DNA of 4,155 nt from a virus (Duplodnaviria; Heunggongvirae; Uroviricota; Caudoviricetes): the IMG/VR virus record IMGVR_UViG_2529292873_000015; one strand, written 5' to 3'. How positions within the stretch are numbered: the stretch's first letter is position 1; every line of letters starts with the position of its first letter. A model generated the notes under the pieces. It had not been told where the DNA came from and did not search any database. It saw only the letters and a program-made list of their open reading frames with translations. Positions 1 to 4,155 of this stretch are shown in pieces. Position numbers and translations under genes: made by a program.

Positions 1-71
1 GCACCAATCCCGGCCACATAGGGAATGCCGTCTTCGTTTTTTGAACCTTCAGCATGTACAGCGCAGCCAGG
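1..71 (-). pseudogene. In-frame continuation of gpJ-like coding sequence downstream of the tandem stop (orphaned C-terminal J segment, runs off the window start)
   Basis: Minus-strand translation in the same frame as J, directly after TGA-TGA, reads PGCAVHAEGSKNEDGIPYVAGIG with no further stop to position 1. This aligns with the lambda gpJ segment ...[21 protein letters not shown] at the expected position. There is no in-frame ATG with an SD in this stretch to restart translation. Confidence 0.45.
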
Positions 72-74
72 TCA

Positions 75-2726
75 TCATTTGTGTCCTTCTGCACGCGCTG
101 TATCTGCTGAATGGTTGGCGCTCTGGTCTTCCAGCGTTTTACTGACCGTCTGTGTGATTTCATTGCGGGTTTCCGTGATGCTGGTCTTCATCTCCGCCAT
201 CTCATCTGCAAGCTGGCTGTTATCTATCAGTTCCCACACCCCCTGAGCCAGATGCAGTTTTCCTATTTTTTCCCGAAACAGCCCCAGATACCCTTCTGCA
301 TCATTGCTGGCCCGGCCACTGGCTTCCACAAAAGCAGATTTCCCCACCAGGTTGACGCTGCGCACGTAAAACCAGAAATCCTTCCCGGGCTTAATGTGCG
401 GGCCGGATACACTCCAGTACAGCCCCGTGCCAAGGTAGCGGGCTGTGGTTTCAACCTGCCTGATATCGGTAATCCGCGTTTCCGAAAACCAGAACTCAAA
501 CTGTACCGTCGGGTCATACACCGCAAGACGCGGGACCGCTGTTATCTGAAAATAGCCCGGTGTCAGCTCAATCTGTGACGGCGCTGCCGGTGCGGCAATC
601 CGGAACGATACCGACGCCGGATCGCCCTGCTGCCCCCACGCATTTACCGCCCGGACTGTCAGCCTGTAGTTCCCCGGCGCCAGTTGCGTGAAGCGGTATG
701 TGGTTTCCGTCGTCCGGGCCGTGCTGACCAGCCGCTCACTGCCGTCATCCGCGGCCACGGTCAGGCGAAGCATAAAGCTCACGCCCTTCACCACCTTCGG
801 CGTGTCCCATTTCGCCTGCGCCAGATACTGACCGTCAGCTGCGCTCACCTCCACCGTCAGGTGCTGCACTGCCGGAGGGATGACGCTGTTCAGGGTGCCT
901 GACTGCGGCTCAAAGCGGGCACCGTTATCCACGATGGCTTCTTTTTCCGGTACGTGCTGCACCGCCGTGATGGCAAAGGTGCCGTCCGTGTTTTCCCGGA
1001 CGGAGACACAGCGGAACAGGCGACGGCGCAGTGACGGCAGGGATAGTCCCCATACACCGTATGTCTCCACACCATCAGGCAGGGTGCTGACCTGTATCCG
1101 GTCCGGCGCGGGGTGTGCGGTGATGTCCACACTCACCGGCTTACCGCTGCCGTTAATCAGGTTCACCGTGGCGGCACCTGTCTCCGGCAGGGTCACCTCA
1201 CGGTCCAGCGTCAGGGTGCGGCTGGCGGCATCGATGGACAGGACACGTCCGCCGGTCATGGTCCCGGCATAGTCGTTATCACAGATTTCAATAATGTCAC
1301 CGGGTGTGTGACGCAGCCCCTGTGACCCGAGCGTGAAATCCACCGTCTGCGTTTCCAGCAGTCCGGTCTTTATCACCCACAGCCCGGCACGGTGGGCCTG
1401 ACCGCGACTGGTGCAGCCGAACGCATCCATCTTCAGCAGGTTGCGCCCGTAGCGCAGTATGGCTTCCGGGTCTTCCACCAGTTCCGTGGAAGTCTGCCAG
1501 CCGTTCTGCGGGTCGGTGTAATTCACCTCCACCGCCGTGTGGCGGTCCTTCAGGGCGCTGAAGCTGTAGCGGAACCCCACGCCGTTATCATCCACCACCA
1601 CATCGCTGTTGGTGTACGGCCACACCACATCCGACGGGCGGTCCTGAACGAACGTCAGCGTCTGGCCGTTCCATACCGGCATACAGCGCATCGCCGAGCA
1701 GAAATCACTGAGCACATCCCATGCCTTACGCTGTTGTGACAGGTACGCATTAAAGGTCATCCGCGGCTCGGTCCCCCCGAAACCATCCGGCACCGTCTGG
1801 TCGCAGTACTGCGCAATGGCATACAGCGCCCACTTGTCCACATCCGCCGCCCCCAGACGTTTTCCCATTCCGTAGCGCGGGTGGGTCAGCATGTCCCACA
1901 GGCACCAGGCCGGGTTATTGCTGTATGCCGGTTTCAGGCTGCCGTCCCAGATACCGCTGTAAGTGCGTTTTTCCGGGTCATAGTTTGACGGTACCTGAAT
2001 GATGCGACCGCGGATATGGTAGTTCACCGTCATCTGCTGGCCACCAAACTGCTCCGCATCCACCTGCAGCCCCACAATCGCCGTGTTCGGGTAGCACTGT
2101 TTCACATCGATGATTTCGGTGTATGACGACCACAGCGTCTTATTCTGCAGCTGGTCCGTGGTGCTGTCCGCCGTCTCCCTGACCATCCGGATGTTAAAGG
2201 GGCGGGGAGGCAGATTATCCAGAATCACCGACGCCAGGTACTGTGAGGTGGTCTTGCCGTTAATGGTGACATCCTTTTCCGTCACCCAGTTACCGTTACG
2301 CTGCAACTGAATCAGCAGTCGGACAGAAGAGGGATTACGGTCGCCCTTTGAGGTGGTCTCCAACAGTGACTGCACCCCGAAGGTGACCCGCAGGCGGTCA
2401 ATGTTCGCGGATGTAATGGTGCGCGTCACCGGCTTTGCCTTCGTCACTTCCACGCCCAGTGCGGTTTCAGCTCCGGAAGACTCAAAGCCTTCAGGTGGTG
2501 TCTGCTCCTGCTCCCCGGCGCGCCAGACCGCTGTCACACCATGTATCACAGGATTACCGTCCGTGTCCGTCAGCGGGGTTTTGTTCACCAGGATACTCTG
2601 CAACCCCTTCACCGGACCTTCAATCGGCCCTTCACCAATGGCATCAATCACGCTCATCATCTGCGTGGACTTAAGATTGTCCTTTGCCTCAACCGGCGTG
2701 TGCGCCCTGCCGCCACCTTTACCCAT
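75..2726 (-). CDS. J: Phage host specificity protein J (lambda gpJ-like tail tip / central tail fibre); 883-aa ORF ending at a tandem stop, shorter than full-length gpJ
   Basis: The 883-aa minus-strand ORF begins [39 protein letters not shown], which is collinear with the lambda gpJ N-terminus as I recall it ([39 protein letters not shown]). Similarity continues through blocks such as [85 protein letters not shown] and [48 protein letters not shown] at 2724..2726 (minus) is preceded by an SD-like GAGAGGA. The ORF ends at TGA 75..77 followed by a second in-frame TGA at 72..74. Confidence 0.9.
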
Positions 2727-2732
2727 AATGTT

Positions 2733-2738
2733 CCTCTC
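2733..2738 (-). promoter_or_regulatory. Shine-Dalgarno sequence for J
   Basis: The minus strand reads 5'-TTGAGAGGAACATT-ATG; the GAGG core lies about 6 nt upstream of the J start codon. Confidence 0.55.
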
Positions 2739-2850
2739 AATTGGTATTATTAATCGCAGTGATAGGATATTGCACAGCTATTGCGCGATATCATCAGAAC
2801 GCTGTTTGTTACCCTGTAACCAGCAAGCTCAGTCTGTTAACGGAATTAAT
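2739..2850 (+). promoter_or_regulatory. AT-rich intergenic region between the J start and sodC, expected to carry the sodC promoter; no confident -35/-10 pair identified
   Basis: This is a non-coding, AT-richer stretch immediately upstream of sodC, with several short palindromes (GTTAC-CCT-GTAAC at 2808..2820, GTTAAC at 2835..2840, GATATC at 2787..2792). Candidate hexamers such as TTGCAC at 2770..2775 and TATCAT at 2789..2794 have non-canonical spacing, so the promoter position is unresolved. Confidence 0.3.
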
Positions 2851-2855
2851 GAGGG
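2851..2855 (+). promoter_or_regulatory. Shine-Dalgarno sequence for sodC
   Basis: GAGGG lies 4 nt upstream of the ATG at 2860 (sequence tgagggttttATG). Confidence 0.5.
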
Positions 2856-2859
2856 TTTT

Positions 2860-3387
2860 ATGAAATGTAAAATCATTGCTGCCATTGCCATGCTGACAGC
2901 AGCATCATGCGGATACGCAGCAGAACAGGAAGTCCCAATGAACCTTGTCAGTGCTGACGGAAAAGAAGTCAGCATTGGAAAAATAACCATTCAGGAGACC
3001 CCCTACGGTCTGCTGTTCACACCAGCCCTTCACTCTCTGTCTGAAGGCATTCATGGTTTTCATGTGCACGAAAAAGGAAATTGCGCCCCGGCACTGAAAG
3101 ACGGAAAACCGGTCGCAGCATTATCGGCTGGCGGTCACTTTGACCCGAAAAACACCGGCAAACATCTTGGCCCCTGGTCTCCGGATGGACACCTGGGCGA
3201 CCTCCCTGCGCTGTTCGTGACGCATGACGGAAAAGCGAACTACCCGGTCCTGGCCCCGAGACTGAACTCATTAAAAGAGATTAAAGGGCGTTCTCTCATG
3301 CTTCATGCTGGCGGTGATAACCATCATGACCATCCGGAGCCCCTGGGCGGTGGTGGTGCGAGAATGGCCTGCGGCATCATTCAATAA
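2860..3387 (+). CDS. sodC: Periplasmic Cu/Zn superoxide dismutase (SodC family), prophage-encoded moron
   Basis: The 175-aa product is [30 protein letters not shown]... It has an N-terminal signal peptide and Cu/Zn-SOD hallmark motifs: GFHVHE (Cu-binding His pair), GGHFDP, KHLGPW...GHLGDLP (Zn/bridging ligands), [21 protein letters not shown], and the disulfide Cys pair (GNCAPA / MACG). It closely resembles E. coli SodC and Salmonella SodCI as I recall them. It is the downstream part of the 344-aa track ORF 2353..3387; the start is placed at 2860 on homology, the signal peptide and the SD. Stop is TAA at 3385..3387. Confidence 0.93.
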
Positions 3388-3393
3388 TCAGTC

Positions 3394-3424
3394 AGGTAAG
3401 GGGCGGGCCCCTTACCTTTATTCC
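3394..3424 (+). terminator. Rho-independent terminator of sodC
   Basis: A perfect 10-bp stem, AGGTAAGGGG (3394..3403) paired with CCCCTTACCT (3408..3417), encloses a 4-nt loop (CGGG) and is followed by TTTATTCC, 7 nt after the sodC stop codon. Confidence 0.7.
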
Positions 3425-3534
3425 TCAGGACGATAAATCCTTTCTCCCTGAAAAGAACGGCACATCCTCCCTCTCTGAGTTAATGTTTTTGTCGTGACAT
3501 AAGAATAATTCCTTACACTCAATCTTCGTAACGC

Positions 3535-3573
3535 TCCCGCAGTTCCTGTCCGTGAGCACTGCGGGATTTTTTC
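3535..3573 (+). terminator. Candidate second plus-strand intrinsic terminator (hairpin plus T6 tract) abutting the stop codon of I
   Basis: A 9-bp stem, TCCCGCAGT (3535..3543) paired with ACTGCGGGA (3558..3566), is followed immediately by TTTTTTCGCTTTT. The loop is long (14 nt), which lowers confidence. The T tract is on the plus strand only. Confidence 0.4.
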
Positions 3574-3577
3574 GCTT

Positions 3578-4155
3578 TTATGCCTGCCGCCCGATAACCA
3601 CCACCTTCCCGTCACCGCCTTCATCACGGGTACTGATGTCCCGGGAGATTCGCCGGGAGCCAACCAGCATTTCACCGTAAGGCACCGGCATCGGGTTCCC
3701 CTGGGCAATCATGTTATCCAGCGAGGAAAAGTACGTGTTCTGTCTGCCGTTATCCGTTGCGCGGTAATCCGGTGTTTTTGCCTTCGGGGCCAGCATCTGG
3801 GCCACACCACCCAGTATCATGCTGGCACCCAGTGAAAACAGCATCGTGGTGGCAGAAAAACCGCCGGCACTCAGCGCTGCACCCCAGGCTGCCATCGATG
3901 CTCCGGCCGTGAAGAAAGAGCCCACGATGGCTGCCGCCCCCAGCACAATCTGCAGTCCACCCTTTCCGGCCCCGGCCAGTCGCGGCACAATATGGATGAC
4001 CGCCCCCTCACCCAGAGGTTCGTGAAGACGGGCGTACACCGCCTCCGGTGCCGTGTCCTCACCGCGAATACGTATCTGGTACCAGCCTTCGTTCATCTGA
4101 CGGCGGAATCCCGGCACCTGTAACGACAGCGCCCGGATGGCTTCCGCTGCCGTGT
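3578..4155 (-). CDS. I: Phage tail assembly protein I (lambda gpI-like), 3' portion; 5' end lies beyond the window
   Basis: Minus-strand translation reads ...TAAEAIRALSLQVPGFRRQMNEGWYQIRIRGEDT...AVIHIVPRLAGAGKGGLQIVLGAAAIVGSFFTAGASMAAWGAALSAGG...LGASMILGGVAQMLAPKAKTP...DNGRQNTYFSSLDNMIAQGNPMPVPYGEMLVGSRRISRDISTRDEGGDGKVVVIGRQA*. This is collinear with recalled lambda gpI (...GAEAIRALATQLPAFRQKLSDGWYQVRIAGRDV...QNTYFSSLDNMVAQGN...VVVIGR). The frame is open to the window end at 4155; the track start at 4117 is an internal GTG, not the true start. Stop is TAA at 3578..3580. Confidence 0.88.
   Translation of the reverse strand, partial: TAAEAIRALSLQVPGFRRQMNEGWYQIRIRGEDTAPEAVYARLHEPLGEGAVIHIVPRLAGAGKGGLQIVLGAAAIVGSFFTAGASMAAWGAALSAGGFSATTMLFSLGASMILGGVAQMLAPKAKTPDYRATDNGRQNTYFSSLDNMIAQGNPMPVPYGEMLVGSRRISRDISTRDEGGDGKVVVIGRQA

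Follow-up and report, generated by a model that had tools for sequence, protein, structure and literature searches.

A Cu,Zn superoxide dismutase gene lying antisense in the I-J tail gene spacer of an O157/O55-type lambdoid prophage: a probable lysogenic-conversion cassette

How does a gene for a superoxide dismutase come to lie between two tail genes of a lambdoid prophage, on the strand opposite to both, and what might it do there? The question is raised by a 4155-bp stretch of viral DNA, referred to here as the window, a section of a lambdoid tail gene cluster whose tail genes lie on the minus strand. The tail tip gene J is recognised by its FNIII-A_GpJ, Phage-tail_3, Ig_J and Ig_J_second domains (Pfam) and by its match to phrog_31, 'central tail fiber J' (PHROGs). 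The tail assembly gene I contributes 191 residues to the window, which are 68% identical to residues 36-223 of lambda I (E = 7e-85) and match phrog_32, 'tail assembly protein' (1.2e-68). In lambda, I and J lie on one strand and 60 bp apart; here they are separated by a spacer of 851 bp (2727-3577). An earlier reading of the window, made from its letters without database searches (the first-pass annotation), had placed an intact, oppositely oriented sodC gene in about 850 bp between I and J, and this holds, as the only credible open reading frame of the spacer is that of sodC on the plus strand. Two minus-strand frames of 44 and 96 amino acids within 3418-3577 were rejected as unsupported, the longer one overlapping I out of frame. 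The features of the window are listed in Table 1.

Table 1. Features of the 4155-bp window, with the evidence or landmarks for each.
Feature	Position	Strand	Evidence or landmark
J, tail tip / host-specificity gene, 5' 2.7 kb	1-2726	-	start codon CAT at 2724-2726
sodC upstream region	2727-2859	+	GC 0.40; opposite strand holds the J ribosome-binding site
sodC, 175 aa, product predicted as the precursor of a Cu,Zn superoxide dismutase, periplasmic or lipid-anchored	2860-3387	+	Pfam, PDB, ligand mapping
T1, predicted sodC intrinsic terminator hairpin	3394-3417	+	folding and covariation
sodC cassette 3' end	3418-3470	+	plasmid-copy homology stops at ~3440; sodC-less spacer homology begins at ~3470
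I-proximal spacer module, apparently ancestral, contains T2	3471-3577	+	common to sodC-less Stx1a/Stx2c phages
I, tail assembly gene, 3' 578 nt	3578-4155	-	stop TTA at 3578-3580; start beyond window end

The assignment of the encoded protein is clear. Its match to the Pfam family Sod_Cu (PF00080) reaches 3.9e-32 and 111.9 bits (cut-off 28.9) and spans 3-133 of the 133 profile positions. In the PDB it matches bacterial Cu,Zn superoxide dismutases of known structure at about 1e-62, namely those of Haemophilus ducreyi (1z9n), Yersinia (2wwn), Salmonella (SodCI, 1eqw) and E. coli (1eso); crystal structures at 60% identity to it exist. Among phage protein families it falls into phrog_1975 (9.5e-97), which PHROGs places in the category 'moron, auxiliary metabolic gene and host takeover'. 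Metal ligands were mapped by aligning the protein with SodCI, SodCIII and human SOD1; the ligand positions of the human enzyme are taken as H46, H48, H63, H71, H80, D83 and H120. These correspond in turn to H68, H70, H93, H102, H111, D114 and H149 of the window protein, so that H68, H70, H93 and H149 are the copper ligands and H93, H102, H111 and D114 the zinc ligands, with H93 bridging the two metals. The catalytic arginine (human R143) aligns with R168, and the disulfide cysteine C146 with C171. Its bacterial partner in the longer disulfide loop, C75, is kept in SodCI and SodCIII, and a C75-C171 disulfide is predicted from this conserved pair. The first-pass annotation had judged the protein catalytically intact by its looks, and on alignment all seven metal ligands, the catalytic arginine and both cysteines are in place; as far as its residues tell, the product is an intact Cu,Zn superoxide dismutase.

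Translation and export signals are likewise present. The gene has its own Shine-Dalgarno sequence, as had been noted earlier (GAGGG at 2851-2855, 4 nt 5' of the ATG). The signal peptide recognised in the first-pass annotation can be described more closely: the N-terminus carries a KxK motif, a hydrophobic core, an AASC lipobox and a GYA/A site, and the leader comprises either residues 1-16 (cleavage at the lipobox, leaving Cys17) or residues 1-20 (signal peptidase I, SPase I). By its motifs this is a dual SPase I and lipoprotein export signal, matching the leader of the E. coli O157:H7 proteins SodC-F1 and SodC-F2, in which an AASC lipobox leaving Cys17 is combined with an SPase I site at 20/21 and which are found in both soluble periplasmic and membrane fractions (D'Orazio et al., 2008; PMC2569942).

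The gene itself is not new. The stretch 2600-3700 of the window is 100% identical to DNA of E. coli O157:H7 strain 493/89 and at least 99.8% identical to that of many O157:H7, O55:H7 and O145 genomes, and at least 80% of it is held by 547 of 5426 complete E. coli genomes. Annotation in the matching genomes places sodC between gpJ and a tail assembly protein, the identical DNA corresponding to WP_000649829.1, and two Stx2a phages in GenBank carry sodC with the same annotation. In strain 493/89 (positions 4953-6212 of the locus compared), the sodC prophage adjoins a tRNA-Ser gene and the hya operon, and past its tail fibre genes it carries tccP2 and an espV fragment, and hence several cargo loci in one element. 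A 287-kb EDL933 'plasmid' record with lambdoid tail genes and sodC (NZ_CP124741.1) is probably a misassigned chromosomal or prophage contig.

The window protein is identical at 174 of 175 residues to a copy in an EDL933 assembly, the single difference being L112P. Codon 112 occupies 3193-3195 of the window. Its Leu is the residue that SodCI, SodCIII and further bacterial SodCs have kept at this position, next to the zinc ligand His111, where one EDL933 copy carries Pro. The two genes of EDL933, sodC-F1 and sodC-F2, have been studied as residents of prophages given as CP-933R and CP-933V, and their products differ by one residue (D'Orazio et al., 2008), which is probably this one. SodC-F1 and SodC-F2 share with the window protein the length of 175 amino acids, the leader and the context between J and a tail assembly gene; the EDL933 copy compared differs from it by having Pro at position 112, and the J and I flanks of the window are mosaic, with a broken J frame. 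The window gene is thus, to judge from these comparisons, effectively the same gene, and a sodC between I and J is already known and ordinary.

Much can consequently be taken from the earlier work on the EDL933 genes. SodC-F1, which departs from the window protein by one residue at most, is dimeric, more active than the chromosomal SodC (19380 versus 6290 U/mg) and also more stable (D'Orazio et al., 2008). Expression is independent of rpoS and extends to log phase and anaerobiosis. In O157:H7 cultures without induction, epitope-tagged SodC-F could be detected in every phase of growth, and it is relatively enriched in intracellular bacteria. A 299-bp fragment upstream of the start codon drives lacZ, although the promoter-fusion and rpoS results are given there as 'data not shown'. 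Mutants in sodC-F are more sensitive to H2O2; the evidence for the E. coli genes thus consists of peroxide sensitivity and expression, not animal data (D'Orazio et al., 2008).

Whether the gene represents an insertion can be read from related phages without it. At least 80% of the window is covered in each of 54 phage records; in 52 of them the match falls into two pieces and the sodC insert is absent. Two such empty-site alleles, WGPS8 and JLK-2012, have I-J spacers of 238 and 239 bp without sodC, and a three-allele alignment divides the spacer into modules. The J start is common to the window, WGPS8 and JLK-2012; a J-proximal module of about 150 bp is common to JLK-2012 and WGPS8; and an I-proximal module at about 3470-3577 is common to the window and JLK-2012, the stretch 3472-3560 showing 97.8% identity to 33 sodC-less phages (Stx1a/Stx2c). 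Read in this way, a cassette of 744 bp (about 2727-3470) replaces the roughly 150-bp J-proximal module of a spacer of about 240 bp. The first-pass annotation had set the locus against the adjacent I and J of lambda and read it as an insertion that separates them; the comparison with lambda stands, and the alignment points to replacement of part of a pre-existing spacer, ruling out a clean insertion into a lambda-like 60-bp gap. Together with the J-proximal module, a GC-rich hairpin that precedes a T run has disappeared from the sodC allele; lambda (1246-1305), WGPS8 (3765-3795) and JLK-2012 (about 3255-3290; numbering of the individual loci) each have it on the late strand just upstream of J.

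Base composition supports a foreign origin of the cassette. GC content is 0.40 upstream of the gene, 0.53 within it and 0.47 downstream, and 0.50 over the spacer as a whole, against 0.59 in J and 0.62 in I; at third codon positions sodC stands at 0.51, against 0.72 in J and 0.68 in I. Sister phages with the same I and J lack sodC, the O157 gene is 99-100% identical, and we consider it very probable that the segment is a lysogenic-conversion cassette, or moron, carried among the tail genes of a lambdoid prophage of O157/O55 type, as the first-pass annotation had proposed.

The cassette also appears to bring its own terminator. Directly downstream of sodC lies a hairpin, T1, with a 10-bp stem, a 4-nt loop and a folding energy of -17.4 kcal/mol. 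Five homologous copies at 76-82% DNA identity were compared, one from the window, three from variants on IncF plasmids and one from a chromosomal relative. Three stem pairs are changed on both sides and still paired, and 94% of cells are paired, while structures slid by 1-3 columns give 0-1 such pairs; the sample is small, and the covariation signal is clean. The U tract is weak (UUUAUU), and the earlier description of a strong terminator therefore fits the hairpin, not its tail. A second plus-strand hairpin, T2 (3535-3566), is followed by UUUUUU just past the I stop. It is present in the sodC-less I-J spacers of WGPS8 (3900-3967) and JLK-2012 (about 3350-3459; numbering of the retrieved loci), and T2 would therefore be part of the ancestral spacer. 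In these sodC-less phages, T2 is a terminator in antisense direction with nothing obvious to terminate.

The promoter is less sharply drawn. A scan for consensus sigma-70 promoters found no site, and alignment of the upstream region with four plasmid copies of about 80% identity revealed invariant blocks. The best candidate, an extended -10 element, TGgTATTAT at 2742-2750, adjoins the J ribosome-binding site on the other strand and is only partly conserved, three of the four plasmid variants having TGaTATGAT in its place. Another of the invariant blocks, CGCGATATCAT at 2784-2794, includes TATCAT and is without a usable -35 element. Since homology of one plasmid copy extends only from about 2727 rightwards, the signals that sodC needs may all lie within the 133-bp spacer upstream of the gene, and a candidate promoter position can be placed within these AT-rich 133 bp. 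Gifsy-2 sodCI is reported to be PhoPQ-regulated; no PhoP box in the window was convincing. One found by eye, TGTTTG-N5-CTGTAA at 2804-2820, was dropped for its poor second half-site and its position downstream of the candidate -10 elements.

Could the region instead specify a small RNA? A search of the whole window against Rfam (E<=1) gave only two sub-threshold chance matches and no known sRNA; one of the two, STnc400, scored 23 bits where the gathering score is 80, and does no more than overlap T1. AgvB and AsxR are located at the pR' moron site and not between I and J, and they have no match in the window; sodC and tail genes are not mentioned in the supplements of Tree et al. (2014). A weak -35/-10 pair (TTAATG-18-AATAAT, 3480-3509) stands ahead of the T2 hairpin and its U run. 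We regard it as very unlikely that 3471-3577 is a small independent antisense RNA gene of Stx-type lambdoid phages and that the I-J spacer is a recurrent slot for antisense-oriented cargo, with sodC as one occupant.

The cassette is better preserved than its surroundings. Compared with five relatives, J has an extra T near position 116 and lacks a T near 33, putting the 27 intervening codons out of frame. The out-of-frame stretch contains stops at 75-77 and 72-74, and the frame is restored afterwards; translation of J would end at residue 883 out of about 1158. Either J is a true pseudogene here, or two sequencing errors fell in short T runs; the annotation of J in strain 493/89 likewise records a frameshift. 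With J frame-broken, the prophage of the window may be defective; sodC is unaffected. As a whole, the window is at most 97.5% identical to any complete E. coli genome, though the cassette is identical to many, and by this measure the window is mosaic.

From these elements the following course of events can be proposed. A promoter belonging to sodC, within the AT-rich 133 bp, would drive its transcription in the direction opposite to that of the late operon. The transcript would end at T1 or, failing that, at T2, the older terminator of the spacer. If T1 and T2 stop transcription in this way, no antisense transcript would run into I, K and L. In a lysogen the late operon is silent, so that sodC could be expressed from the repressed prophage; in lytic growth, late transcription would cross the cassette in antisense, so that sodC could not be made from the late transcript. 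The precursor would be exported and then either cut by SPase I after residue 20, giving a soluble periplasmic enzyme, or processed by the lipoprotein pathway at Cys17, giving a membrane-anchored one. The protein would bind copper and zinc, form the C75-C171 disulfide and mature into a dimer, and it could then dismutate external superoxide that reaches the periplasm, for instance from a host oxidative burst, and thereby raise the fitness of the lysogen. For the window gene, an active, dimeric and partly lipid-anchored enzyme that lysogens make independently of rpoS, and mutants sensitive to peroxide, are expected by analogy with the near-identical EDL933 genes; we infer what T1 and T2 do in vivo, where the promoter lies and any contribution to virulence.

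Other uses of the locus have to be weighed against this course of events. Its position within the late region could mean that sodC serves the lytic cycle, being made from the late transcript or on induction and shielding the induced cell against oxidation until it lyses. H2O2 and other oxidative stresses do induce Stx-type prophages. Transcription driven by pR', however, yields only antisense RNA of a gene that lies on the opposite strand, and cultures without induction contain SodC-F in every growth phase (D'Orazio et al., 2008); this makes such a use extremely unlikely. It has somewhat more to commend it that the cassette might act mainly as RNA, with sodC RNA, or RNA from read-through beyond T1 and T2, antisense to the tail transcript and damping J or I or excluding superinfecting relatives, and the enzyme being secondary. 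The gene is antisense to the late operon and diverges from J, its upstream region overlaps the J ribosome-binding site, and antisense RNAs of prophage structural regions can exclude phage, as does STnc6030 of the Salmonella prophage BTP1 (PMC7067206). We nevertheless hold this to be very unlikely: the open reading frame is fully intact with every catalytic residue kept, the enzyme works and mutants without it show a phenotype (D'Orazio et al., 2008), two plus-strand terminators between sodC and I would prevent read-through rather than use it, and the same gene is kept on plasmids and chromosomes where there are no tail genes to regulate.

Nor does sodC look like a passenger without selected function, a still-intact leftover in a decaying prophage. 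Such prophages do seem to degrade, J being frame-broken in the window and frameshifted in 493/89. The cassette, by contrast, is intact and 99.8-100% conserved in hundreds of genomes of several serotypes, with flanking tail genes that vary by 3-7%; copies of about 80% identity retain the open reading frame, the upstream blocks and the compensated terminator; and mutants are more sensitive to peroxide (D'Orazio et al., 2008). A mere passenger is thus most improbable, and an exported enzyme made in the lysogen from a lysogenic-conversion cassette is the reading that we prefer.

The discovery value of the locus is small, as prophage sodC has been annotated since the first O157:H7 genomes and was biochemically characterised in 2008. 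What has been gained is that the moron was read correctly from sequence alone, that its bounds (about 2727-3470) could be set against real empty-site alleles, that its synteny could be corrected, and that plasmid copies could be traced to a phage tail region.

These plasmid copies encode a SodC with 82% identity (P0005) and lie beside IS elements on E. coli IncF plasmids of about 90-110 kb (e.g. CP024150.1, AP026497.1; positions 4719-5582 of the CP024150-type locus). At the DNA level they are 79-82% identical to the window from the upstream region through the gene to T1. They differ from the window in being flanked by IS3, IS66 or IS110 elements and in lacking tail genes. Homology to the window covers 2581-3440 and in some copies includes up to 146 nt of the 5' end of J; the plasmid genes would thus stem from the tail region of a phage, probably through secondary capture. 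A further relative with 80% protein identity (P0007) is chromosomal and adjoins an ABC transporter, its homology being confined to 2851-3426, that is, to the Shine-Dalgarno sequence, the gene and T1.

Among classical morons, lom and bor of lambda, which belong to the concept of Juhala and Hendrix, are extra genes absent from sister phages, with their own transcription signals, a distinct composition and benefits for the lysogen; the sodC cassette resembles them in its absence from such phages, its composition, its terminator and, as proposed, its promoter and its benefit. The site and strand differ: lom lies downstream of J on the late strand, whereas the sodC cassette lies upstream of J on the opposite strand.

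The closest parallels come from Salmonella. The first-pass annotation had likened the gene to the sodC genes of Gifsy-2, Fels-1 and O157 prophages. With respect to synteny this is correct for the O157 prophages, which share the context of J, sodC and a tail assembly gene, and for Fels-1, not for Gifsy-2. In Fels-1, sodCIII occupies the same slot in the same orientation, antisense between gpI and gpJ homologues, and its product has 60% amino-acid identity to the window protein and shares all catalytic residues. Its gap to I is 53 bp, against 190 bp in the window, its leader is without the lipobox cysteine, and the non-coding flanks of the two loci have no recognisable homology beyond the J start. 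The sequences are compatible both with a single ancient acquisition and with independent capture at the same site. In Gifsy-2, sodCI is likewise prophage-borne, antisense-oriented and part of a tail gene cluster, and its product is 59% identical to the window protein, but it sits at a different site, between gpM / Lom-like genes and gpL; I and J of Gifsy-2 lie about 70 bp apart with nothing annotated between them. Gifsy-2 sodCI is a proven virulence factor that is expressed in lysogens, and highly so while the lytic genes are silent (PMC7067206).
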